Assembly (NCBI GenBank): GCA_021768185.1
Contig: JAETNP010000027.1
Coordinates: forward strand, 6,511-70,510
Origin: Oscillospiraceae bacterium
GTDB lineage: Bacteria; Bacillota; Clostridia; Oscillospirales; Oscillospiraceae
Length of the DNA stretch: 64,000 bases
Direction: 5' to 3'
Below, in pieces: positions 5,527-56,639 of the stretch (position 1 is the stretch's first letter; each line of letters opens with the position of its first letter). The notes under the pieces are model-generated. The model saw only the letters and a program-made list of their open reading frames with translations, ran no database searches and was not told the origin of the DNA. The translations under genes were made by a program, and so were the position numbers.

Positions 5527-6721
5527 GAAGCAATATCTGCGGGATCTGGCCCTCCGCCAGGCGGAACTGGCGGCCAGTCCGGAAAACCAGCGCCTCAAGG
5601 AGGCCTGGTACAAACATAACAGCCTCCAGGGTGAGCACCCAATGGTGGTCTTTGAAGAGGACACCTGCGTGAAGGAATTCGTGAAGCCCCTCTGTGAGAC
5701 GCCGGCGGCGCGCGCGCTCGAAGCCCGCCTTCTGCAGAACATCCGCTCTCACGAGATCCTTGGCGACGACAAGGTCGTGCCGGACTTTATCGAGGTGCCG
5801 GTGAATATTGAGAGCCGGTTTTTTGGCGTTGCGCCCAAGCGCGTCGTGGCGAAGGAGGGACTGGGCTATCACGACGAACCAGTACTCTCCGACCTGACGG
5901 AGGATCTGGAAAAGCTCTCCGCCTCGCAGTTCCGCTGCAACCGTGAGGAAACGGAGCGGAGGGAGAGCTATGTCCACGACATGGTCGGGGACATCCTTCC
6001 CACCAGGCGCGTCAACGCCCTCAACCGCTGGCACTTTGCACTCACGCAGCACGCCGTGAACCTCATGGGCATGGAGAATCTGTTTTTAGCGATGTACGAC
6101 ACGCCGGATGAGCTGCACGCGCTCATGCGCTTCTTGACGGACGACTGCAAGCGGCTCCTCCGCTGGGAGGAAGAAAACGGCCTCCTGTTTGCCAACGCCG
6201 GAAACGACTACATGGGAAGCGGCAGCTACTGCTTCAACCGCGAGCTTGCCCAGAGCGGCCCTGTGACCTCGCGGCAGACGTGGGGGCACACAAACTCCCA
6301 GGAGAGCGTCGGCATCAGCCCGGAGATGTACGAGGAGTTTATCTTCCCGTACCTCTGCGAGATCGCGGACGAGTTCGGGCTCATGTACTACGGCTGCTGT
6401 GAGCCGGTGCATCCCATCTGGGACCGCTGTGTCAGCAAGCTCCCGCATCTGCGCAAGGTGTCGATCTCCGCGTGGTGCGATGAGGCGTTTATGGCCGAGC
6501 GCCTGACCGGCGCGAATGTAATCTACTCCCGCAAGCCCAGCCCAAATTTTTTGGGTGTCGATCCCATTCTGGACGAGGACGCCTTCCGGGCGTACATGAA
6601 AAATACGCTCGACCTTACGCGCGGCTGCCATGTGGAGATCATTTTCCGGGACGTCTACACCCTGCACGGCGATCCCAGCAAAGCCCGCCGGGCTGTAGAA
6701 ATCGTTCGGAGCTTGATGTAA
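5516..6721 (+). CDS. hypothetical protein, possibly a distant URO-D-like TIM-barrel
   Basis: 401-aa GC3-rich ORF that co-operonic by position with the two URO-D-like genes. It carries a YYGCCEPVHPIWDRC Cys cluster. The family assignment is weak. Confidence 0.4.
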   Translation: MMDEKQYLRDLALRQAELAASPENQRLKEAWYKHNSLQGEHPMVVFEEDTCVKEFVKPLCETPAARALEARLLQNIRSHEILGDDKVVPDFIEVPVNIESRFFGVAPKRVVAKEGLGYHDEPVLSDLTEDLEKLSASQFRCNREETERRESYVHDMVGDILPTRRVNALNRWHFALTQHAVNLMGMENLFLAMYDTPDELHALMRFLTDDCKRLLRWEEENGLLFANAGNDYMGSGSYCFNRELAQSGPVTSRQTWGHTNSQESVGISPEMYEEFIFPYLCEIADEFGLMYYGCCEPVHPIWDRCVSKLPHLRKVSISAWCDEAFMAERLTGANVIYSRKPSPNFLGVDPILDEDAFRAYMKNTLDLTRGCHVEIIFRDVYTLHGDPSKARRAVEIVRSLM

Positions 6722-6993
6722 TACTATTGTGATAATTTCTTTTTAATCTAATATCCTCCTAATAGTCTGTAAAACCTAAACCTTAGGGAAGCTGCGGAAG
6801 ACAGCAATATCGGAATTAACAAAACGGACAGTATGCTGCATATGCCTAACTGTCCGTTTGTCCTTTTTGCTGGTTCAAAAAAGCTTGTAAAACGCAAGGA
6901 ATTTGAGGATTATATTGAACAGAAACATATAATATGACCCATCAAAAAGAGCGGCAAAATAACGCTTGAGAAAGAGGGCGGTATCTGCTATAC

Positions 6994-7555
6994 TTGTGGC
7001 GTAGTAGTGCGCTCTCTTTCTTTGCAAGAAAGGATGGGTTATACTTAGCGCGATTTGTTGACAAGGCAGGGAAAAGGCATGATAAATGTTTCCGAAAGCT
7101 TCCAGAAGCCAGAAACTGGCTGGAGGAAGCACGGGATCTCGACAGGCAGGGAGGACAGCGTGCTGAGCCGCATGAAGAAAGCTTTGCGTTACCTGATATG
7201 ACGGTAGACGCATGGTTTGACTTGGGACTGCACCGACTGAGAAAAGAGGACATTCATAGTAAACAAGACTTTGGAGTTCCGGCACAAACAGACAGAATGG
7301 AGAGCAGGACCGCCCAAAACAGTTACCAGCTACCGCACAATCCCACTCACGAACAGAGCATATGACACCCATCTTTACAAGATTTGCGATGAGAACGGAA
7401 TCAAACGCTTCTGTATGCACGCGCTGAGACATACCTACGCCACCCGAGCAATAGTCAATGGCAAAATGGTGAAGAAATGGTACAGTAATGGTGAAGCTCT
7501 AAAGGAGCAAAACCTGGAAACCATTGATAAATCAGGACTTTCTAAGGAGATGTAA
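6994..7555 (+). pseudogene. decayed tyrosine recombinase / phage-type integrase
   Basis: Two out-of-frame fragments. The first is an integrase N-terminus-like segment (GLYLARFVDKAGKRH..KLPEARNWLEEA). The second is a catalytic C-terminus-like segment (GPPKTVTSYRTIPLT ... MHALRHTYATRAI). The central part is missing and the context is AT-rich. Confidence 0.65.
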
Positions 7556-7561
7556 AGCAAT

Positions 7562-8653
7562 ATGAAACTTGGCATTGTGGGACTGCCCAACGTAGGCAAA
7601 TCGACCCTTTTCAACGCCATCACCAACGCCGGCGCGGAGAGCGCCAACTATCCCTTCTGCACCATCGACCCCAACGTAGGCATGGCAGCCGTTCCCGACC
7701 CCCGTCTGGACAAGCTCAGCGAGATGTACCATCCCAAGAAGACCACCCCCGCCGTGATCGAGTTCGTAGACATCGCGGGCCTGGTAAAGGGAGCCAGCAA
7801 GGGCGAGGGCCTGGGCAACAAGTTTCTCTCCAACATCCGCATGACGGACGCCATTGTCCATGTGGTGCGCTGCTTTGACGACGAGAACGTGATCCACGTA
7901 GAGGGCGGGGCGGACCCCATCCGTGACATCGACATCATCGACCTGGAGCTGGTGATGGCCGACGTGGAAATGGTGGAGCGGCGCATCGACAAGGCCCAGA
8001 AGGCCGCCAAGGGCGACAAGAAGTTCCTCAAGGAGGTGGAGGTCTTCCAGGGCCTGCTGGCCTGGCTCAACGACGGCAATGCCGCCCGCAGCTACGACTG
8101 CGACGAGGACACAAAAGCCGTCATCGCCACCAGCGACCTGCTGACCCTCAAGCCGGTGATTTACGCCGCCAACCTGGACGAGGACGGCTTCGCCAACCCG
8201 GAAGGGACCGCTTACTATCAGCAGGTCGCCCAGCGGGCTCAGGCTGAGGGGGCCCAGGTGATCCCCGTATGCGCCAAGCTGGAGGCGGAGATCGCCGAAC
8301 TGGAGGGCGAGGAGAAGGCCATGTTCCTGGAGGATCTGGGGGTCAGCGAGAGTGGTCTGGACCGTCTGGTAAAGGCCAGTTATACCCTGCTGGGGCTGAT
8401 TTCCTACCTGACCAGCGGCGAGGACGAGTGCCGGGCCTGGACGATCACCAGAGGCACCAAGGCTCCCCAGGCGGCGGGGAAGATCCACTCTGATTTTGAG
8501 CGGGGCTTCATCCGTGCGGAGGTCATTGCCTACGACGACCTGATGACCGTGGGCACCATGGCGGCGGCCCGTGAGAAGGGTATGATCCGCTCCGAGGGCA
8601 AGGAGTACGTGGTGAAGGATGGGGATATCATCCTGTTCCGCTTCAACGTCTGA
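7562..8653 (+). CDS. ychF: redox-regulated ribosome-binding ATPase YchF
   Basis: G1 motif GLPNVGKSTLFNAIT, a central coiled region, and the C-terminal TGS end KEYVVKDGDIILFRFNV. Confidence 0.95.
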   Translation: MKLGIVGLPNVGKSTLFNAITNAGAESANYPFCTIDPNVGMAAVPDPRLDKLSEMYHPKKTTPAVIEFVDIAGLVKGASKGEGLGNKFLSNIRMTDAIVHVVRCFDDENVIHVEGGADPIRDIDIIDLELVMADVEMVERRIDKAQKAAKGDKKFLKEVEVFQGLLAWLNDGNAARSYDCDEDTKAVIATSDLLTLKPVIYAANLDEDGFANPEGTAYYQQVAQRAQAEGAQVIPVCAKLEAEIAELEGEEKAMFLEDLGVSESGLDRLVKASYTLLGLISYLTSGEDECRAWTITRGTKAPQAAGKIHSDFERGFIRAEVIAYDDLMTVGTMAAAREKGMIRSEGKEYVVKDGDIILFRFNV

Positions 8654-14370: not shown

Positions 14371-14703
14371 CTAAAGTCTGTTGTTGTCTCCCCACTCGCA
14401 CATCCCGTCCAGAATGGGGATAAGGGATTTCCCCCGCTCTGTCAGGCTGTACTCCACCTTCGGCGGGATCTGCGGATATTCTTCTCTGTGAACCAGCCGG
14501 TCCGTCTCCAGCTCCTTCAAGGCGGAACTGAGGGTTTTATAAGAAATATCGCCGATGTATCGCTTCATTTCATTGAACCGCACGACGCCGAACTCCATCA
14601 GCGTATAGAGAATGGTCATTTTATATTTCCCGTTGATCAGAGACAGCGTATAACTGAATCCGGTCGTTTGCAGGCACTCCTGCGAGATACAGCGCTCCCG
14701 CAT
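14371..14703 (-). CDS. HxlR-family winged-helix transcriptional regulator
   Basis: INGKYKMTILYTL ... RFNEMKRYI.DISYKTLSSALKELE.DRLVHRE.YPQIPPKVEYSLTE.G. Start chosen at the internal M (MRERC). Confidence 0.85.
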   Translation of the reverse strand: MRERCISQECLQTTGFSYTLSLINGKYKMTILYTLMEFGVVRFNEMKRYIGDISYKTLSSALKELETDRLVHREEYPQIPPKVEYSLTERGKSLIPILDGMCEWGDNNRL

Positions 14704-14837
14704 TTTACACTCTCCTTCAGGTAAGTATCGCACTTCAAGGTGCGTACTTGCCTTTTTTTCTCTTTATGGTACCATCATAATACAACCCGCCGGCACAGTC
14801 AAGCCGGCTGACAATAAAGCAAGGAGAGGATATCATC

Positions 14838-15383: not shown

Positions 15384-15406
15384 TACTTTTTCCCGGCCAA
15401 ATCACA

Positions 15407-15445
15407 CGGCGGGATGCGCCCCTCTTTCCGGGGCACATCCCGCCG
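15407..15445. terminator. hairpin between convergent flavodoxin-like and HD genes
   Basis: ACGGCGGGATGCGCCCC-TCTTTCC-GGGGCACATCCCGCCGT, an imperfect long stem. Confidence 0.5.
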
Positions 15446-15457
15446 TACAATTTGCGC

Positions 15458-17713
15458 TTATGATGACCAGCCGGAAAGGTGCCGCTCAACAAAAAACTCC
15501 CGAATTGCGCCTCTCAACGCAGAGGCTTCCTTTTCCTTCTGGCGGACGTCCGTCGAAACCGTTCTGTAGTATAGATAAAAGTAGTAGCTGGTATCTGTGG
15601 AAATAGCCGTCCAGTCGGCCAGCAGCGGAATTTCGTCCAGCAGGGCCACCGTCCCGTCGCTGGCGACGATGAAGGTTTCATTCGCCTTGAGCCGCTTGGA
15701 TTTGTAACAGGCGTCCACGTAGACCAGATCCGCGATGCCGTCCAGCTCGCCGTTCGCACGGTGCTTCAGTTCGTCCAGCAGCTCGCTGCTCAGATAGCCC
15801 GCCTCCGCTCCGCGGTCATCCAGCCAGGGAAGGCTGGGGTGGCGCTGGGTGAGAAGGTACTGCTTGATCTTATGCCGCTTGTCAAGGGGGATCGCCTCAA
15901 AGAGCAGATCAAATTCTGCCAGGGATTTGTACAGGGACAACCGGTATTTTCTGCTCAGCAAATCCTCGCACAGCCGTCCCCACTCCGAATCGGCAAAGTT
16001 TCCGGCCGCGTAAGCGACTTTAATGGCCGTCCAGACATAGGAATCATCCAGCCGCTCCAGATTTTCAAAGTCCAGCCGCCAGGGCGGGAAGACTCCGGAC
16101 GCCTTGGACAGCACCTCCCGGGAGATCAGCGGAATCAAGAAATTCGCGTAATAGGTGACCTTGTGATGGGCGTAAATCCACAGGTATAAATAGTCCCGGG
16201 CTTCCAGCACGTTGGCGATCACATTGATCGCCTGCTTTTTAAAGCCGACGGAGAACTCGTTATAGGCGTTTTTATCGGGAATCCTTTTTTCGATCATCTC
16301 CCCCAGCAGGACCAGCTCATGGGTCTGCCCCGTGAGCTGTACGTCAAAGATCTTCATAGAGGATTTTGTGCGGAATTTCCCTTTGATCTCAATGTCGCAT
16401 AATCCGTTTACCTGCAATTCCGCCGCGTTTCCCATGGAGCTGTCCGTATGGACCACGAAATGGAAATCTTCGGATTCCACCTTTGCGTTTTCAATGCGGT
16501 AATCAAATGGAACCCTGTTCTTGAAATCAAGGGATTTATAGGGGGGATTTCCGGAGGTCTGGTCGATAATCCGCCCATCCTGCATAAGGAACGCGGCCTG
16601 GAATCTTGCGGGCTCCGCGTCCTCCGCGTAGGAAATCTTTCCGTGATCCACAGACTGCAGGGAGAGGAAGGTGCTGCCCTGTCGTATCCTGACGTCCGCG
16701 TCCTTTTTCAGCAGGAGGGTGCCGCGAAAGCGCCCGGATATCCGGAAGCAGTTCTCCTGATTATTGTTCATCAGGAGAAAGATCCCCCGGTTTTTCAGGT
16801 GAACATCCTCATAGAGCCGGTCCACATACCGGGTTTTAGGCACAATGCAGACCGCGCTCAGGAGGCGTTCAATATCAATTTTAATATTGCATATTCCGGA
16901 CATTTCCGTATCGCGGATCACATAATCCAGCTTGTCAACGTCAAAATTGCCCCCGTTGAGCAGTTCAATAAAGCAATTGCGGATTTGCTTTTCCGGTTGG
17001 AATCCCGTGTATCTCAGGCCCAGGATCATCCGCGCGATGAACGCCATATCGCTGTCAAGATCGGACTTGTCGATCCTGGGGGTGTTGCTGTAGTGTTCCG
17101 CGTACAAAATATTCCCTGTCAGCGGGTGCTGCTTCTCGAGCAGATCCGCCAGATCGTCAAACACCTTTTCGATAGCCGGCCGCATGTGGGTAAGAATATA
17201 CAGCGCGCCGATGATCTCATGGGGAGCGGCGTCGAGCCGCTCGATGTCTTCGCTCCCGGCCTCAAGCCGGCGCAGCTCCTCCGCCAGCCGCTCGTTCAGG
17301 TTGGTCGGCTCGCCGTTGGCGCCGCGGCTGTTCACCAGCACAATGCTCTCCAGCGCGTGGGAAAACGGAGCGTGTCCGATATCGTGCAGGAGGCAGGCGA
17401 TCAGAAAGAGCACCTTGTTTTTCGCCCAGAAGGTCAGCGAGCTGTTGTCGCTGCTGATTTTCCAGTAGTCCTCATGGAAGAAATTCTCCAGCAGCATATC
17501 CGCCGCTTTGCAGCCCAGGTGATAGACGCCCAGGGAATGGCTGAAGCGGTCATGCTTGGCGTTGGGATAGAGAATCCGCATACCCGTCTGATCAATATTC
17601 CGCAGCCGCTGAAACATTTCGGTGTCGATCAGATGGTTGACAAAGCACTTGGGAACCTTGATATATCCGTGTACCGCGTCCATAAAAAGCTTCACTTCTG
17701 GAAAATCAAACAT
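15458..17713 (-). CDS. SAMHD1-like HD-domain (d)NTP triphosphohydrolase-type protein with a ~450-aa unassigned C-terminal region
   Basis: Motifs DAVHGYIKV ... FQRLRNIDQTG ... HDRFSHSLGV ... LLHDIGHAPFSHALE ... DVDKLDYVIRDTEMSG. GGGGGAG RBS before the ATG at 17713. Confidence 0.75.
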   Translation of the reverse strand: MFDFPEVKLFMDAVHGYIKVPKCFVNHLIDTEMFQRLRNIDQTGMRILYPNAKHDRFSHSLGVYHLGCKAADMLLENFFHEDYWKISSDNSSLTFWAKNKVLFLIACLLHDIGHAPFSHALESIVLVNSRGANGEPTNLNERLAEELRRLEAGSEDIERLDAAPHEIIGALYILTHMRPAIEKVFDDLADLLEKQHPLTGNILYAEHYSNTPRIDKSDLDSDMAFIARMILGLRYTGFQPEKQIRNCFIELLNGGNFDVDKLDYVIRDTEMSGICNIKIDIERLLSAVCIVPKTRYVDRLYEDVHLKNRGIFLLMNNNQENCFRISGRFRGTLLLKKDADVRIRQGSTFLSLQSVDHGKISYAEDAEPARFQAAFLMQDGRIIDQTSGNPPYKSLDFKNRVPFDYRIENAKVESEDFHFVVHTDSSMGNAAELQVNGLCDIEIKGKFRTKSSMKIFDVQLTGQTHELVLLGEMIEKRIPDKNAYNEFSVGFKKQAINVIANVLEARDYLYLWIYAHHKVTYYANFLIPLISREVLSKASGVFPPWRLDFENLERLDDSYVWTAIKVAYAAGNFADSEWGRLCEDLLSRKYRLSLYKSLAEFDLLFEAIPLDKRHKIKQYLLTQRHPSLPWLDDRGAEAGYLSSELLDELKHRANGELDGIADLVYVDACYKSKRLKANETFIVASDGTVALLDEIPLLADWTAISTDTSYYFYLYYRTVSTDVRQKEKEASALRGAIREFFVERHLSGWSS

Positions 17714-17834
17714 AGGACTCCCCCTCTATGGCGGTGCATCCTCCCTTTTGCTTGGATGCGGAATCCGCCATGATGTTCAGCGGCGAGTGAAGCGGAGCGC
17801 ATGGGGCGGCCGCGCTTCAGCGCACAATCCCACT

Positions 17835-18179
17835 TTACGCGGCGTTCACAAATTTATGTACGATACCTGCCAGAGTTTGATCCAGCTCGTAATCGGAGAA
17901 GGCCATGTCCGTTCTGCCGGTATGCCGCAGATAGATCGTCTCGCCATCGACGTCCAGCGCGAAAATATCCCGATTATAGACCACGGTCCTTTCCAGCGCC
18001 TCAAAGTTTACATCAAAAGATATCTGATAATCCTTGAGCTTGCCCAGCTGCCAAAGCTCTTTGTAAATATAATTGAGCAGCTGCTGCAGCCGGTCCAGGG
18101 GGAGGTACTCCCTTCGATCCTCGCGCAAAAGGTTTACGATGATGGTTTTCGTGTCAACGAACTTTGGCATACTGTTCAT
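17835..18179 (-). CDS. 114-aa hypothetical protein, translationally coupled to the upstream ATPase gene
   Basis: The ATG overlaps the ATPase TGA (ATGA at 18176-18179). No recognisable motif. Confidence 0.55.
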   Translation of the reverse strand: MNSMPKFVDTKTIIVNLLREDRREYLPLDRLQQLLNYIYKELWQLGKLKDYQISFDVNFEALERTVVYNRDIFALDVDGETIYLRHTGRTDMAFSDYELDQTLAGIVHKFVNAA

Positions 18180-19921
18180 TTTTTGTCTCCTTCACTTGTT
18201 GCCTGTGGGATGTTTTCTTCCTCAGGTATGGATGATCCCGTCAGTTCTTGATAGCTCAAAGAAGAATTGGCGTACTGATTGAGGTAGAACGCCAATCGGA
18301 TTCCATTTTTGAACCGCTCCATGTCGCTGTCCGCCGTTGTCCGCTTGATCTTCCGAATTTCGGCCAGGGCGTCGTAATGGATGGTTTTGACGCCGTCCGG
18401 AACGGTTTTGAGGGAATTTGCCAACCCCTCCCGGCGGATCATATGGCTTACGATCTGGGGCTTTTCCGGGTGGGGCCTGTAAACGCAGTTTTCGCCGCCA
18501 AAGAGCGCCCGGGCTCCGTTGGGGGTCATCACCAGAAAGCCGTTGGCATAAGGCGCTTCCCCCACCGTCAGCTCCTCGCGTTCTACAATAATCAGCCAGC
18601 CGTTCTCCTTCAGGAGCTTTTCCACATAGGCCAGCTCCTCCGCCCATGTCGTCGGGTCGATCTCATGGAATACGTTGACCATCAGCACATAATCCGCCTG
18701 TCCGCGGATCTGTTCAAGGAGCGCATCCTTGTCGTTGAAGTAGCGCTTGGACGACGAGCCGTATGTATCCATGGAGCGTTTTGCCTCGGCGGCGTAGGTG
18801 TCATATTTATCGTAGGCGTAATACTGCGCCTGCTCCACGGCGCTTTTGCCGATCTGCTGGGAGAGCTCTTCCAGCAGCCTGCACTTTCCCACGCCGAAAT
18901 CCACGATGGTCTTTCCCTGCGCGAAGAACCGCTCCAGCAGATCGTTTTGCGGATTTCTCGGCAGAGCGGAAAAAACCTCCGGATCGGTCATGCACTGCGC
19001 CGCGAAAAAATTGCACGCGTACTCGTCCGGGGCCGCCATAAGCTGCCGGATGGCGAACCGGTTGTCCTCCGAGCCGATCAGGCCGGCCAGCAAATCACTG
19101 GAATTGCTTCTGGGCAGCCGGATTTCCCCTTTAGACAGATAGAGGATCGTCGTGCTGTGGTCGAAGACAGTCAAAAAGGAGATCAGCGCCAGGGAATGGG
19201 TGGAGATCCAGAACTGGGCGTCGGGGAACTTCTTCCGCAGGGTTTGGATCAGCTCGATCTGCGCCTCGGGATGCAGATGCAGTTCAGGCTCGTCCAACAG
19301 AAAGACGACGTTTTCATTCCGTTCGTTGCGGTAACAGGCCACCGCCATCCGGAGAAGATACTGCTGTCCCGGGGACAGGCCCGATTTCCACGTATCCATG
19401 CCGAACAGCTTGGGGCATCCGTTCTCGTCCTTAGTCAGCTCCAGCCGAAACGGCGCGGCGTACTCCGTGACAAATTTTTCCCATTCCGCGCCGTCCCGGT
19501 ACGCCTCGGAGTAGCCGTTTGCCATATCCTCCAGCAGGAGCAGCGCGTTCAGCGCGGTTTCCGCATAGTCGTATTTCTGCAGGAGAGCCGTCGCCTTGCT
19601 GATGACATACGGCGTATAGCCCGCCGGGGACTGGAGCTGTGCGTCGTAGTGGGAATAATTCACAAGCTTTATTTTGGAAACCGTTTCAGCCGTGAGCCGT
19701 TCTTCCTCCGTCCCCTCTCCCGTTCCGGGGATATACAGCTCCAGATCGCCGGAGTCCGTCCCCTTCCGCAGGTCGCCGACGGTTTGTTCCAGCAGCTTGA
19801 GGAGCCTTGTCTTGCCGGAACCGTTGCTCCCGGCAAGAACGACAATGTTTCCCAAGGGGATCTTCCCGGCTTTTTGCAGTCCGTTCAGCTCTTTTCTGAT
19901 CGCTATAGACGATATTTTCAA
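18176..19921 (-). CDS. ABC/OLD-type (AAA_15/21-like) ATPase fused to a class-I SAM-methyltransferase-fold domain
   Basis: Walker A GSNGSGKT, signature-like LSPGQQ, Walker B/D-loop VFLLDEPELHLHPE, H-loop ISTHS. The C-terminal half has MTase motif I IVDFGVGKC, plus YYAYDKYD, VLMVNVFHEI and LLKENGWLIIVE. Confidence 0.7.
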   Translation of the reverse strand: MKISSIAIRKELNGLQKAGKIPLGNIVVLAGSNGSGKTRLLKLLEQTVGDLRKGTDSGDLELYIPGTGEGTEEERLTAETVSKIKLVNYSHYDAQLQSPAGYTPYVISKATALLQKYDYAETALNALLLLEDMANGYSEAYRDGAEWEKFVTEYAAPFRLELTKDENGCPKLFGMDTWKSGLSPGQQYLLRMAVACYRNERNENVVFLLDEPELHLHPEAQIELIQTLRKKFPDAQFWISTHSLALISFLTVFDHSTTILYLSKGEIRLPRSNSSDLLAGLIGSEDNRFAIRQLMAAPDEYACNFFAAQCMTDPEVFSALPRNPQNDLLERFFAQGKTIVDFGVGKCRLLEELSQQIGKSAVEQAQYYAYDKYDTYAAEAKRSMDTYGSSSKRYFNDKDALLEQIRGQADYVLMVNVFHEIDPTTWAEELAYVEKLLKENGWLIIVEREELTVGEAPYANGFLVMTPNGARALFGGENCVYRPHPEKPQIVSHMIRREGLANSLKTVPDGVKTIHYDALAEIRKIKRTTADSDMERFKNGIRLAFYLNQYANSSLSYQELTGSSIPEEENIPQATSEGDKK

Positions 19922-20182
19922 TTCCTATCTCCCGCCCTTGCTGCCGTATTTGATCCGTTCTGCCCGCCGCCGCGGACGGCGGCAGCCGCGAAACATGGCA
20001 CATATGACTCCCGCCAATGGAGGAAAGGGGGAAACGCGAACCGGCCTATCCGTCGATCTTTGCTTGACATACTAGATATAGTAGCAAAAGATTACCTGAA
20101 ACGCAAGAGGGAAATGGGACAATCCCGTAAAAATCCTCTTGGGGCATAAGCCGCGATCAGGCGCATTCCCTGGGGCCGCGCG

Positions 20183-28834: not shown

Positions 28835-31177
28835 ATGGCAAAATCGAGTCTCGTGATCGTGGAGTCTCCCGCCAAAGCGAAGACCATCGGAAAGTATCTG
28901 GGTCCCGGCTATCAGGTGAAGGCCTGCATGGGCCATCTGCGGGACCTGCCCAAGAGCACCCTGGGGGTGGACATCGAAAACAACTTCGAGCCCAAGTACT
29001 GCCCCATCAAGGGAAAGGAAGATATCATCAGCGACCTGAAAAAGTCCGCCAAGGCCAGCGACACCGTGTTTCTGGCAACCGACCCGGACCGTGAAGGGGA
29101 GGCCATCAGCTGGCACCTCAAGGAGCTGCTGGGTCTGGCGGACGAAAAAGCCCGCCGGGTGACCTTTAACGAGATCACCAAACGGGTGGTCAGCGAATCC
29201 ATCGCCCGGCCCCGGGAGATCGACCAGAGTCTGGTGGACGCCCAGCAGGCCCGGCGCATCCTGGACCGGATCGTGGGCTATCAGCTCTCGCCCCTGCTGT
29301 GGAAGAAGATCCGCAGCGGACTGTCCGCCGGACGGGTCCAGTCCGTAGCCACCCGGATGGTCTGTGACCGGGAGCATGAGATCGCGGCGTTCAAGCCCCA
29401 GGAGTACTGGTCCCTGGACGCCAGGCTGACTCCCGACGGCACTGAGCGCAGCGCTTTCCTGGCCCACTACCATGGGGAAAACGGGAAGAAAAAAGAGCTG
29501 AATTCCATAGAAGAAGTGGAAGCGGTGACGGCGGCTCTGAAGGACGCCGCCTTTGCCGTCAAGAGCGTCAAGCGGCAGGAAAAGCAGCGCTCCCCAGCCG
29601 CCCCCTTTACCACCTCTACCCTCCAGCAGGAGTCCAGCCGGAAGCTGAACATGACCCCCCGGCGCACTATGGCTATCGCCCAGCAGCTCTACGAGGGCGT
29701 GGAGATCTCCGGCGAGGGCGCGGTGGGTCTGATTACCTATATGCGTACCGACTCCCTGCGGCTCAGCGACGAGGCGCTGGCTTCCGCCAGGAGCTTTATC
29801 CGGGGCCGCTATGGCGAGGCGTACTGCCCACAGGCGCCCAGAGTTTATAAGACCAAGGCCGGGGCGCAGGACGCCCACGAGGCCATCCGGCCCAGCAATG
29901 TGGAGCTGACACCGGAGATGGTGAAAAAGGATCTGACCGGGGACCAGTACCGGCTGTATGGGCTGATCTGGAACCGGTTCGTGGCCTGCCAGATGTCCAA
30001 CGCCGTCTATGATGCGGTCTCCGTGGAGATCCAGGCGGACGTTCACACCTTCCGGGCCAGCAGCAGCAGCTTGAAATTCTCCGGATACACCGCCGTCTAC
30101 GAGGAGGGCAAGGACGAGGAGAAGGAGGAAAAAGAGGGACGGCTGCCGCCTCTTACCGAGGGGCAGAGCCTCAAAAGTCTGGATTTCCAGCCGGGTCAGC
30201 ACTTTACACAGCCACCGCCCCGGTACACCGACGCTTCCCTTATCCGTGCGCTGGAGGAGAACGGCATCGGACGGCCTTCCACTTATGCGCCGACGGTCAG
30301 TACCATTCTGGACCGGGAGTATGTGGTCAAGGACGGAAAGTACCTCCACACTACGCCCCTGGGCGAGGTGGTCAACGGGCTCATGGAGGACAAATTCTCC
30401 GACATTGTGGACACCGGATTCACCGCCAGCATGGAGAAGGAACTGGATGACGTGGAGGCCGGAAACAAGCAGTGGAAGGAACTGCTGCGGGAATTCTATA
30501 CGCCTTTCCGGGCGGAGCTGGACCAGGCGGAGAAAGATCTGGAGGGCGTGCGGCTGAAAGTGCCGGACGAGGTCTCTGAAGAGGTTTGCGACCTGTGTGG
30601 ACGGCAGATGGTCATCAAGAGCGGACGGTTCGGGCGGTTCCTGGCCTGCCCGGGATATCCGGAGTGTACCTTTACCAAGCCGCTGGTGGTGGCTATGCCG
30701 GGACGGTGCCCCAAATGCGGGGGACGGCTCATGAAGCGTACCGGCAACAGCAAGAAAACCGGCAAGCAGTATACTTACTACTGCTGTGAGCGGATGACCA
30801 GCAAGGACGAAAATAACCGGTGCGATTTCATGACCTGGGATGTGCCGGTGGCGGACGACTGCCCCGTCTGCGGCGAAACCATGTTCAAAAAGGCGGGGAA
30901 GGGATTCAAAAAGCCCTTCTGCATCAACGAAAAGTGCGAGAATTTTACGCCGGAGGAAAAACGGGGCGGCTGGAAGAAGAAAGAAACCTCCGCAGATGGG
31001 GACGAGCCCGCGGCGGAAAAGGCCCCCGCTAAAAAATCCGCCGCCGCCCAAAAGACAACTACTGTCAAGAAAACTGCGGCGGCAAAGAAAACCACCACGG
31101 CAAAAAAGACGGCGGCATCCAAGAAAACAACTGCCACCAAGAAGACTACTGCAAAGAAAACGGCGGAGAAGAAATAA
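28835..31177 (+). CDS. topA: DNA topoisomerase I
   Basis: Toprim start LVIVESPAKAKTIGKYLG, catalytic-region YMRTDS, several C4 zinc ribbons, and a Lys/Thr/Ala-rich tail. Confidence 0.95.
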   Translation: MAKSSLVIVESPAKAKTIGKYLGPGYQVKACMGHLRDLPKSTLGVDIENNFEPKYCPIKGKEDIISDLKKSAKASDTVFLATDPDREGEAISWHLKELLGLADEKARRVTFNEITKRVVSESIARPREIDQSLVDAQQARRILDRIVGYQLSPLLWKKIRSGLSAGRVQSVATRMVCDREHEIAAFKPQEYWSLDARLTPDGTERSAFLAHYHGENGKKKELNSIEEVEAVTAALKDAAFAVKSVKRQEKQRSPAAPFTTSTLQQESSRKLNMTPRRTMAIAQQLYEGVEISGEGAVGLITYMRTDSLRLSDEALASARSFIRGRYGEAYCPQAPRVYKTKAGAQDAHEAIRPSNVELTPEMVKKDLTGDQYRLYGLIWNRFVACQMSNAVYDAVSVEIQADVHTFRASSSSLKFSGYTAVYEEGKDEEKEEKEGRLPPLTEGQSLKSLDFQPGQHFTQPPPRYTDASLIRALEENGIGRPSTYAPTVSTILDREYVVKDGKYLHTTPLGEVVNGLMEDKFSDIVDTGFTASMEKELDDVEAGNKQWKELLREFYTPFRAELDQAEKDLEGVRLKVPDEVSEEVCDLCGRQMVIKSGRFGRFLACPGYPECTFTKPLVVAMPGRCPKCGGRLMKRTGNSKKTGKQYTYYCCERMTSKDENNRCDFMTWDVPVADDCPVCGETMFKKAGKGFKKPFCINEKCENFTPEEKRGGWKKKETSADGDEPAAEKAPAKKSAAAQKTTTVKKTAAAKKTTTAKKTAASKKTTATKKTTAKKTAEKK

Positions 31178-31182
31178 ACTCT

Positions 31183-31437
31183 TTACACCCGTGACAGCTC
31201 TTGACCAATAGACAGCCCGGCTTGAAAGGCGGCTTTCAGCTCAAGGAAAGAGCTGTTGTTCCTGCTTTGGCGCAGTTCCGTCAGAAGTTCCGCCCGGTCT
31301 GGAGGAAGAAGAGCTTGAATACTTTTCTCTATGCCTTCTTCCTCATGGGCATAGTGCTTATGTTCTAATGTATCTAAATGCGGGTGAAAGTTCTTTTCCA
31401 TTGCGTAATTAAACAACTGTTCTACAGTGTCAGTCAT
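31183..31437 (-). CDS. 84-aa helical hypothetical protein, of a type often paired with XRE regulators in Firmicutes mobile DNA
   Basis: Low-GC ORF divergent from an XRE gene. C-terminal pattern ...FLELKAAFQAGLSIGQEL. Confidence 0.5.
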   Translation of the reverse strand: MTDTVEQLFNYAMEKNFHPHLDTLEHKHYAHEEEGIEKSIQALLPPDRAELLTELRQSRNNSSFLELKAAFQAGLSIGQELSRV

Positions 31438-31475
31438 ATTGCTTCACTCCTTGAATATTATTGTTACGGCCCAAT

Positions 31476-31502
31476 CGGACCGGTTATAGTATAACCGGTC
31501 CG
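31476..31502. promoter_or_regulatory. operator-like perfect palindrome in a divergent promoter region
   Basis: CGGACCGGTTATA-G-TATAACCGGTCCG, 13-bp arms, between the divergent 84-aa gene and the XRE gene. Confidence 0.5.
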
Positions 31503-31534
31503 GACGGGCCTGTCAACCCTTTTGGAGAAATAAA

Positions 31535-31744
31535 ATGTCAAATTTTGCGGAAAGATTGCTTTTGCTGAGAAAAGAGAGAAAATTGAATCAAGAAGATGTG
31601 CTGGAACCGTTTGACCTTTCTGTTCGCACGTATCGCCGCTATGAAACCGGGGAACGCGAAGCGACAATATCCACTCTGTGGAAAATCGCGGATTTTTACG
31701 GGGTCTCTGTAGATTATTTGATTGGACGGTCTGAGGAACGATGA
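31535..31744 (+). CDS. XRE-family helix-turn-helix regulator (69 aa)
   Basis: [19 protein letters not shown] ... [36 protein letters not shown]. Stop overlaps the trmFO start (ATGA). Confidence 0.85.
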
Positions 31745-33051
31745 ATGTAACCGTTATCGGCGCGGGATTGGCGGGAAGCGAGGCCGCGTGGCAGCTGGCG
31801 AAACGGGGCGTCCATGTCACCCTGCGGGAAATGAAGCCCCACAAAATGACACCCGCCCACCATACGCCCGACTTCGCGGAGCTGGTCTGCTCCAACTCCC
31901 TGCGGGGCGCGGGTCTGGAAAACGCCGTGGGGCTTCTCAAGGAGGAGCTGCGCCGGCTGGGAAGCCTCATCCTGGAGGCGGCGGACGCCACCCGGGTGGA
32001 AGCCGGAGGCGCGCTGGCGGTGGACAGGTACGGGTTCGCCGCCTATGTGACCCGTGCCCTCCGGGAACATCCAAACGTCACCGTGGAGGAGGGGGAAGTC
32101 ACCGCGCTCCCGGAGGGGGAGGTGCTGGTGGCTACCGGGCCTCTGACCAGCGACGCGCTGGCGGAACATCTGGCGGCCCTGACCGGCGGCGAGGAGGCGG
32201 CTTTGCACTTCTTTGACGCCGCCGCGCCGCTGGTGAGCTTTGACAGCATCGACATGTCCCGGGCGTGGTTCGCCAGCCGGTACGACAAGGGCACGGCGGA
32301 TTATGTCAACTGCGCCATGGAGAAGGAAGAATATCTCGCCTTCTGGAAGGAACTGTGCGAGGCCCAGGAGGCGGAGGTCCACGGATTTGAGGACAAGAAC
32401 GTCTTTGAAGGATGTATGCCCGTGGAGGTCATGGCCCGGCGGGGTGAGGACACCCTGCGGTACGGGCCGCTGAAACCAAGAGGTTTGAAGGACCCGGCCA
32501 CGGGGCGGGAGCCTTACGCGGTGGTACAGCTGAGAAAGGACAACGCCGAGGGGTCCATCTATAATCTGGTGGGCTTTCAGACCCACTTGAAGTTCGGGGA
32601 GCAGAAGCGGGTGTTCTCTATGATTCCGGCGCTGAAGAATGCGGAATATGTGCGGTATGGGGTCATGCACCGGAATACGTATCTGGATTCCCCAAGGCTG
32701 CTGGACCGGTATTACCGGCTGAAAAGTCAGCCGCGTATTACCTTCGCCGGGCAGATGACCGGGGTGGAGGGCTACGTGGAGTCCGCCGGGTCCGGGTTTC
32801 TGGCGGCGGTGGAACTGGCGAGAAGGTTAAGGGGGGACGCCCCTATTGACTTCCCCAGGGAGACGGCGCTGGGAGCGCTGAGTTTGTATGTCTCCGACGA
32901 AACGGTGAAGGATTTTCAGCCGATGAATATCAATTTCGGGATCATTTCGCCCCTGGGGTACAAGGTCCGGGGGAAGCGGAACAAGAATCAGGAGATCTCT
33001 CAGCGGTCGCTGGAAATCATTGAACGGATGAAACCGGACATTCTGATTTGA
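31741..33051 (+). CDS. trmFO: methylenetetrahydrofolate--tRNA-(uracil54-C5)-methyltransferase TrmFO
   Basis: [19 protein letters not shown] motif, [18 protein letters not shown], and conserved position after topA. Confidence 0.95.
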
Positions 33052-56169: not shown

Positions 56170-56280
56170 AAAATGAATATGAGCAGTCCTTTCCTCATAG
56201 AAACGACTGCCCAGACGGACGGCGAAACCTCTCTAACCTGTTTCCCTGTGGTATCCCACAATCCCGTCAGTCGCAGGCAG
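56170..56280 (-). promoter_or_regulatory. ZTP (pfl-motif) riboswitch with terminator-type expression platform, leader of the pur operon
   Basis: The minus-strand RNA reads CCUGCGACUGACGGGAUUGUGGGAUACCACAGGGAAACAGG ... CGCCGUCCGUCUGGGCAG. This matches the remembered ZTP consensus GACUGGCG..GUGGGA.ACCAC.GGG ... CCGCCUGGGCA. The 3' pseudoknot strand overlaps the stem GCAGUC/GACUGC, which is followed by AUAUUCAUUUUU. Confidence 0.65.
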
Positions 56281-56639
56281 ATCTGTTTAATTAAAAACTT
56301 ATCTTAAGGCTAACATTTTCTTTGGGAAAAGACAAGAGATAAACATACAGATTATTTCCTCCTTTCACCCGCCGCCACTGGGTAACTTCAATAAATCGCC
56401 GGGATTTTCCCGGTTGGTCTTGACTTCTTCCGGAAATTATGTAATAGTTTCAATGATAAACTGTTATCAGAGGAAGGAGGCCCCGGCAATGAGGAAAAAC
56501 GCGCTTTCGTCCAACATCGCGCCCGGCGGAAGGGGCTTCCTGTTTCCGTTTGCCCGATATAATTTCCCGGCGTCACGGACCGCTTTGCCGCCCGTGGCCG
56601 CCGGGCTTTTCTTTAATGCAATGCAAAGGAGGAACGCAG

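Follow-up and report, generated by a model that had tools for sequence, protein, structure and literature searches.

A SAMHD1-type HD protein encoded with an ABC ATPase-methyltransferase fusion: a candidate anti-phage cassette of gut Clostridia

Gene organisation and composition of the cassette

The window examined here is a stretch of 64,000 nucleotides from an Oscillospiraceae bacterium (GenBank assembly GCA_021768185.1, contig JAETNP010000027.1, positions 6,511 to 70,510 of the forward strand), and it carries a 4.5-kb cassette of three co-directional genes on the minus strand, here called g1, g2 and g3. The first gene, g1 (18176-19921), starts with TTG and encodes a protein of 581 residues in which an ATP-binding cassette (ABC) ATPase is fused to an S-adenosylmethionine (SAM) methyltransferase (MTase). 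It is followed by g2 (17835-18179), whose 114-residue product is translationally coupled to g1 and could serve as an adaptor or inhibitor, and by g3 (15458-17713), which encodes an HD protein of 751 residues. A preliminary description of this DNA, made from its letters alone, had placed three genes at these positions, where the listing of open reading frames (ORFs) returns them exactly, and had suggested a sensor ATPase coupled to a nucleotide-depleting effector. The domains, linkage and genomic context presented below support this suggestion; from them we infer a role in anti-phage defence by depletion of deoxynucleoside triphosphates (dNTPs), which we hold to be somewhat probable.

The three genes are likely to be expressed together. 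The stop codon of g1 and the start codon of g2 share an ATGA overlap, as had been noted before, and a GGAG-type Shine-Dalgarno sequence lies ahead of each of the three starts; both features count for a g1-g2-g3 operon. In the case of g1 the sequence is GGGAG, 7 nucleotides upstream of the TTG codon. Translation from this codon begins with MKISSI, and the same N-terminus is found in homologues, which supports this start. Between g1 and the upstream GntR/FCD gene lie 261 nucleotides (19922-20182, minus strand) that contain no confident ORF, in agreement with the non-coding region of about 260 nucleotides described earlier, and that constitute the putative promoter region of the operon. A simple sigma-70 scan called no promoter here at its threshold. 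By eye, a weaker TTGCGT-17 nt-TACTAT match can be seen at about 20068-20096, upstream of g1, which we can only infer to be the operon promoter. Across the window, promoter and terminator scans gave counts at chance level. At the other end of the cassette a strong hairpin (15398-15454, inverted repeat I1) separates the convergent g3 and flavodoxin-like genes. Its arms (15398-15422 and 15430-15454) fold with a free energy of -49 kcal/mol (z = -7.6), and none of 200 shuffled sequences was as stable, so that the convergent-gene hairpin first recognised by inspection is clearly present. It is probably a bidirectional terminator, although the terminator scan made no call there. The 121-nucleotide spacer between g2 and g3 showed no notable RNA structure (z = 0.42).

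In composition the cassette differs from its surroundings, and the impression of an A/T-richer block was borne out by measurement. Its G+C content is 0.548 compared with 0.604 for the whole window, which places it in the lowest 0.3% among equal-sized windows, and G+C at third codon positions (GC3) is 0.64-0.73 in g1-g3; of eight flanking genes that were measured, seven have values of 0.81-0.89. To judge from these values, the cassette was most likely acquired horizontally. The exception among the flanking genes is an HxlR gene (14371-14733, minus strand), which, with a GC3 of 0.71 and a G+C content of 0.517, differs from the genes around it. The 4.5-kb window of lowest G+C content begins at 14401.

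Domains and motifs of the encoded proteins

The product of g3 consists of an HD catalytic lobe of the SAMHD1/EF1143 type (residues 1-287; 16853-17713, minus strand), an all-beta insertion domain of about 205 residues (288-492; 16238-16852) and a C-terminal lobe of the SAMHD1-type fold that was delimited by Foldseek and profile alignment (493-751; 15458-16237). Pfam recognises the HD domain only (PF01966, 1.5e-7). A search of solved structures with the single sequence returned exclusively SAMHD1-family proteins (E ~1e-17 to 1e-11), and so did a 20-sequence profile compared with the PDB (E ~8e-28 to 1e-15); the matches comprise BT4208 (2q14), AQ_1910 (2hek), EF1143 (2o6i, 3irh) and the SAMHD1 proteins of Caenorhabditis elegans and mammals. 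The metal-binding tetrad H59, H110-D111 and D260 aligns with the SAMHD1 motifs and is invariant in 20 homologues, which upholds the H..HD..D motif set claimed for this gene at the outset. Around the tetrad, R56-F-S-H59-S-L-G, H110-D-I-G-H114-A-P-F-S-H119 and D258-V-D260-K-L-D-Y264-x-x-R267-D268 fall on the catalytic motifs of SAMHD1, and H114, H119, K261, Y264, R267 and D268 are likewise aligned to SAMHD1 and invariant in the 20 homologues. By SAMHD1 numbering, H165-E166 would be the HE dyad, and R506, Y514, H516 and K518 may correspond to the substrate-binding helix.

The AlphaFold2 model of g3 (mean predicted local distance difference test, pLDDT, 82.7; predicted template-modelling score, pTM, 0.82) extends this relationship to the entire fold. 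Foldseek matched it to 2hek (1.9e-9), 3irh (4e-9) and SAMHD1 (~1e-8), with E values of 2e-9 to 1e-7 overall. Both lobes are aligned, at target-normalised template-modelling scores of 0.59-0.72 against 2hek, 3irh and SAMHD1; in the profile comparison, residues 493-586 were matched to 2q14. The insertion between the lobes forms contiguous beta strands, mostly at pLDDT >90; profile-to-PDB alignments skip from about residue 290 to about 493, and the insertion is missing in the matching solved SAMHD1-type relatives. Because nearly all of its invariant residues are Gly, Phe, Val or Cys, and hence structural, the insertion is more suggestive of a module for binding or assembly than of a second enzyme. 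Allosteric sites could not be recognised in g3, and sequence similarity to the SAMHD1-type enzymes is undetectable outside some 180 residues. The curated anti-phage dGTPase model NF041026 is not reached (18.8 bits against a cut-off of 400), and the PADLOC dGTPase match is weak (1.1e-7) and limited to residues 29-123. On the combined grounds of motifs and model, g3 is classed as a SAMHD1/EF1143-type dNTP triphosphohydrolase with predicted dNTPase activity.

The N-terminal part of g1 (residues 1 to about 265; 19127-19921, minus strand) is an ABC-ATPase domain that matches AAA_21 (2e-15) and AAA_15 (2e-14). In an alignment of 23 homologues of 39-68% identity the complete motif set is invariant, namely Walker A (G31-x-N-G-x-G-K37), the signature motif (L182-S-P-G-Q186), Walker B (D210-E-P-E213) and the H-loop (T241-H242). 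The nearest solved relatives of this domain are PtuA of Septu and of a retron, AriA of PARIS, and GajA, all of them defence proteins. The distance between Walker A and the signature motif, about 145 residues, is presumably shorter than in PtuA and AriA, so that the ATPase of g1 appears compact and seems to lack a long coiled-coil arm. Its assignment, by sequence, is to the AAA_15/21 ABC ATPases without a Toprim domain. The earlier wording of an ABC/OLD-type ATPase fused to an MTase stands as regards the motifs and the MTase, whereas OLD-type applies to the ATPase class alone.

Residues ~326-470 of g1 (18512-18946) form the class-I SAM methyltransferase domain, for which Pfam gives Methyltransf_12 (33.6 bits) and Methyltransf_23 (28 bits), both over the cut-off. 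Motifs I (D341-x-G343-x-G345-K-x-R348) and IV (N416-V-x-H419-E420) do not vary among the 23 homologues, and 22 of the 23 have an acidic residue behind strand 2 (D371 in g1). Like the ATPase motifs, motifs I and IV persist in fusions from other phyla that share just 23-30% identity with g1. This domain is predicted to bind SAM and to belong to the small-molecule type of Methyltransf_11/12/23. We considered and rejected a DNA methylase on catalytic motifs and family matches: g1 contains no DPPY/NPPY-type or PCQ motif, the lone ENV match (residue 203) lies in the ATPase half, and no DNA-methylase family of Pfam is matched at E up to 0.1. Since neither motif nor family match is present, a role in DNA modification is unlikely. 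The C-terminal region (residues ~471-581; 18176-18511) has no family match and counts F474, I522, G540, F545 and Q549 among its conserved positions.

The small protein g2 has no match in Pfam, PADLOC or NCBIfam. Its AlphaFold2 model is of similar quality (pLDDT 83.5), and the fold search returned weak winged-helix-like resemblances of which none is significant (best E 0.28 against the PDB and 0.023 against viral models). When 1.84 billion representative proteins were searched exhaustively with a g2 profile, 130 relatives were collected, mostly of 105-120 residues. In one of them, P0363 (280 residues), the g2-family domain (E 2e-6) is fused to an N-terminal SocA/Panacea antitoxin domain (3.7e-10). 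This one case hints at a g2 fold able to act as a neutralising or adaptor module.

Linkage, distribution and neighbourhoods of the family

Genome, metagenome and assembly collections yielded 17 distinct loci with inspectable g1 homologues of at least 35% identity, and a g3 homologue adjoins g1 in all of them. In thirteen of these g2 separates the two genes; three (L002, L005 and L008) have g1 followed by g3 without g2; and in the remaining one (L091), which also lacks g2, the order is inverted to g3-g1 and adjacency is kept. The proteins have also diverged together. Pairwise identities of g1 and g3 correlate with r = 0.92, a value that none of 2000 Mantel permutations reaches, and those of g2 and g3 with r = 0.83. 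Neighbour joining of the HD proteins groups the trio type in one clade and places the pairs without g2 on two deeper branches. The expected co-occurrence is thus found, and the linkage of g1 and g3 is strict; g2, however, is restricted to a single clade, and HD genes can be found on their own as well. The cassette moves as one unit among gut bacteria, so far mainly uncultured gut Clostridia, and its distribution is patchy.

Stand-alone HD homologues come from Muribaculaceae (L010), from Anaeroplasma and Prevotella (L011 and L013) and from an element that carries, by eye only, a putative recombinase and an FtsK-like gene (L016). In L011 and L013, which belong to different phyla, the HD gene overlaps a gene for a CYTH-domain protein. 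The CYTH family consists of enzymes with triphosphate substrates, among them inorganic triphosphate. As inorganic triphosphate is the expected by-product of a dNTP triphosphohydrolase, the overlap lends modest independent support to the predicted chemistry with release of inorganic triphosphate. The block common to both loci (L011, 4774-8862; L013, 9989-14113) comprises the HD gene, the overlapping CYTH gene and an F420-ligase-like gene, which suggests a different, transferable HD-based module. In L015 (9989-12083) the HD homologue is split into two ORFs of 137 and 535 residues and is probably a pseudogene. A scan of viral contigs with the HD profile found giant-virus SAMHD1-like fragments only, and tblastn against GenBank phages and PLSDB plasmids returned only matches to the N-terminal HD motifs at 16-38% coverage; none of these three collections contains the family itself.

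The genes that flank the family vary between lineages. In L193 and L194 (1-7671) the trio follows Gabija, represented by a GajA-like OLD-Toprim gene and a UvrD helicase, another AAA_15/21 ATPase, and DarT with a NADAR partner. In L189-L192 its immediate neighbours are a pair of Cap4_nuclease genes, and the right flank differs between samples. An HTH_3 and Peptidase_M78 regulator ends 5 nucleotides ahead of g1 in L197, an M78/CapP-like protein comes after the stand-alone HD gene of L010, and Bro-N, RHH and IS66 genes lie close by in L083. Purine-biosynthesis genes adjoin the cassette in L198. These contexts do not amount to a single conserved housekeeping neighbourhood, which by the preliminary description would have spoken against its proposal, and several are defence islands; the association is recurrent and not universal, and it is given here as observations on single loci.

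More distant ABC-ATPase-MTase fusions, of 23-30% identity to g1, are found without an HD gene (L092, L095, L096 and L166). In L096 (3546-6993) the gene for a fusion of 614 residues and that for an anti-phage dCTP deaminase are transcribed divergently, 70 bp apart; the deaminase is a bona fide one, with 439 bits for NF041025 (cut-off 400) and a PADLOC match at 3e-152. Both genes lie in a prophage remnant, with a RelB/ParE pair between the terminase (TerL) and portal genes. A viral-contig scan with an alignment of the distant fusions located a lone fusion of 617 residues in the accessory region of a prophage (L166, 7329-9182), preceded by an HTH_3 gene and bordered by O-acyltransferase genes on one side and YqaJ/Gp3-like recombination genes on the other. 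A WYL regulator lies upstream of the fusion in L092. The same scan contained no further pair of fusion and deaminase, and the pairing stays at n = 1. Taken together, these loci suggest that the fusion itself is a mobile immune module which can combine with different nucleotide-depleting effectors.

Candidate mechanism, rival explanations and known systems

We propose that g3 is the effector of the cassette. It would convert dNTPs into deoxynucleoside and inorganic triphosphate, as SAMHD1 and EF1143 do, and thereby starve phage DNA replication. Its beta insertion is placed where SAMHD1-type enzymes have regulatory elements and may offer a surface for oligomerisation or for the docking of partners in a physical complex. 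In the uninfected cell g1, joined by g2 in the trio clade, would hold g3 inactive; a phage cue would then cause its release or activation. Such a controller would follow the sensor-effector logic of PARIS and Septu. The SAM-binding domain of g1 might act as a ligand sensor, or else as a methylase of small molecules or proteins, whereas methylation of DNA is not predicted.

Several observations weigh against this proposal. Bacterial SAMHD1-type enzymes such as EF1143 are housekeeping dNTPases. Full-length HD homologues exist without g1 (L010, L011, L013 and L016) and g2 is absent from four loci (L002, L005, L008 and L091), which shows that the HD protein can exist without either partner. The fold assignment of g2 is weak, as the E values given above (0.28 and 0.023) make plain, any role for the MTase domain is pure conjecture, and the pairing of the fusion with a dCTP deaminase is a single locus (L096). 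In the window, as in L196 and L198, the cassette sits among ordinary metabolic and regulatory genes and not in a defence island. Exact look-ups of the flavodoxin-like and GntR neighbours gave only cassette-bearing contigs and hence no empty-site allele, and the cassette is not bounded by direct repeats.

A toxin-antitoxin-like wiring would retain the same effector and assign the inhibitory role to g2 instead of g1: the HD protein would be a growth-arresting, dNTP-depleting toxin, g2 its direct inhibitor, and g1 an ATP-driven device that strips or reloads g2 when triggered. This would suit a small, translationally coupled protein that co-diverges with the HD protein (r = 0.83) and has one family member fused to a SocA/Panacea antitoxin domain. 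However, that fusion is one protein, at E = 2e-6 to the g2 profile, and the four g2-less loci keep g1 and the HD gene. Since these loci exist, together with stand-alone HD genes that have no g2-like neighbour, the HD protein must be tolerated without g2, and we regard such a wiring as unlikely. The cassette might alternatively be an accessory module outside of defence, in which a regulated dNTPase comparable to EF1143 and TT1383 and an ATP- and SAM-responsive regulator tune dNTPs to the metabolic state. The closest solved relatives do include bacterial SAMHD1-type enzymes of ordinary genomes, and metabolic neighbours occur in the window, L196 and L198, with purine-biosynthesis genes in the last of these. 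Housekeeping dNTPases, however, are normally single conserved genes, whereas this family is patchily distributed and foreign in composition, its flanks differ in every lineage and include defence islands, its ATPase is of the PtuA/AriA/GajA class, and an M78-HTH regulator stands directly upstream in L197. We therefore think it quite unlikely that dNTP homeostasis explains the cassette.

The combination of ATPase, MTase and HD protein also recalls the modification-dependent logic of BREX and MADS, in which case the MTase would mark self nucleic acid, the ABC ATPase would scan, and the HD protein would act as a Cas3-like nuclease on unmarked invader DNA or RNA. Weak matches of g1 to the MAD3 ATPase (3.5e-15 in PADLOC, 2.4e-10 in NCBIfam) and the binding of nucleic acids by SAMHD1 (PDB 8d9j, 6u6z, 8tdv) could be cited for this. 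We nevertheless find it very unlikely: the MTase is of the small-molecule type, without DPPY/NPPY or PCQ motif, DNA-methylase family or target-recognition domain, and the HD protein matches dNTPases across both lobes and conserves the residues aligned to the SAMHD1 active-site motifs, while the Cas3 HD domain is matched at E 0.015 only. That an independent HD defence gene and an independent ATPase-MTase gene have merely come to lie side by side is more improbable still. Each is indeed found alone, the former in L010, L011, L013 and L016 and the latter in prophage L166 and in L092 and L095, but adjacency holds in 17 of 17 loci and survives the inversion in L091, gene boundaries are overlapping or tight, co-divergence (r = 0.92) is not reached in any of 2000 Mantel permutations, and the trio-type HD proteins constitute one clade.

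Known bacterial nucleotide-depletion defences are Dgt-type dGTPases or dCTP deaminases, mostly encoded by single genes; the stand-alone anti-phage dGTPase and dCTP deaminase were reportedly described by Tal et al. in 2022. The question of how cells silence such toxic enzymes before a phage arrives has begun to be answered only recently, to our knowledge first with Clover. With the stand-alone enzymes (NF041026, NF041025) the cassette would share the depletion of DNA precursors that blocks phage replication, but g3 is on the SAMHD1 branch and not the Dgt branch, and the cassette has several genes. Like SAMHD1, EF1143 and TT1383, g3 possesses a two-lobed fold and the motifs RF-x-HSLGV, HD-x-GH-x-PFSH and DVDK-x-DY-xx-RD; unlike them, it has a 205-residue all-beta domain between the lobes and shares its operon with genes for an ATPase-MTase and a small protein. 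The g1 ATPase is of the same AAA_15/AAA_21 ABC class as those of PARIS, Septu/retron Ec78 and Gabija, carries the full motif set, and may obey the same logic of ATPase scaffold and effector. It differs in that its matches to these systems are partial, missing the NCBIfam equivalog cut-offs about tenfold, that it is fused to an MTase, and that the effector is an HD phosphohydrolase instead of a Toprim or HNH nuclease. In Clover, the dNTPase CloA is combined with CloB, a Pol-beta nucleotidyltransferase that makes an inhibitory nucleotide, and CloA resembles the Dgt-type defence dGTPase (~33% to SpdGTPase) (PMC12265719). Both Clover and the cassette co-encode a putative or proven defence dNTPase with a dedicated regulatory partner (PMC12265719), whereas the partners here are an ABC ATPase-MTase and a 114-residue protein, and no nucleotidyltransferase match of the CloB type was obtained for g1 or g2.

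The trio had not been recognised as a named system, and this assessment was confirmed: no model of PADLOC v2, NCBIfam release 20 or Pfam names it, nor was a description found in the literature searched. PADLOC v2 gives generic ABC-ATPase matches to g1 (AriA, PtuA and similar), mostly over the signature and Walker-B region at residues 180-250 and at their widest over residues 19-243 (PDC-M01A). The NCBIfam PtuA equivalog scores 52.5 bits against a cut-off of 500, and the cassette contains neither an HNH (PtuB) nor a Toprim (AriB) gene. If the proposed function is correct, a true SAMHD1-branch enzyme would take part in prokaryotic immunity, strengthening the parallel between animals and bacteria. 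It would be controlled by a different solution, in which an ABC ATPase of the PARIS/Septu class is fused to a SAM-binding domain and assisted by a small adaptor, and a new beta domain would be inserted into the SAMHD1 fold. The defence systems of uncultured gut Clostridia are poorly charted, and the cassette is compact and directly clonable. We further speculate, as a rather doubtful extension, that the fusion is a general portable controller of nucleotide-depleting effectors (the SAMHD1-type dNTPase here, the dCTP deaminase in L096). Sensing would then fall to the conserved SAM-binding domain of the fusion, which could either guard SAM against phage SAM-degrading or anti-restriction enzymes or produce a methylated small-molecule signal that gates the effector, comparable to the inhibitory nucleotide of Clover.

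As for the remainder of the window, the genes on the g3 side of the cassette encode an NTP-transferase, AraC and HxlR regulators and an FMN-reductase-like flavodoxin, and those on the g1 side a GntR/FCD regulator followed by a large ORF of 959 residues. An exact look-up of the large downstream neighbour found no record, and there is no tRNA gene in the window. Two other stretches of low G+C content occur, at 6001-8000 (0.533) and 30001-32000 (0.555), the former of which includes a gap of about 840 nucleotides without a confident ORF (6722-7561). The sole Rfam match in the window is a ZMP/ZTP riboswitch (RF01750) at 56202-56284 on the minus strand, which scores 56 bits against a gathering score of 39.

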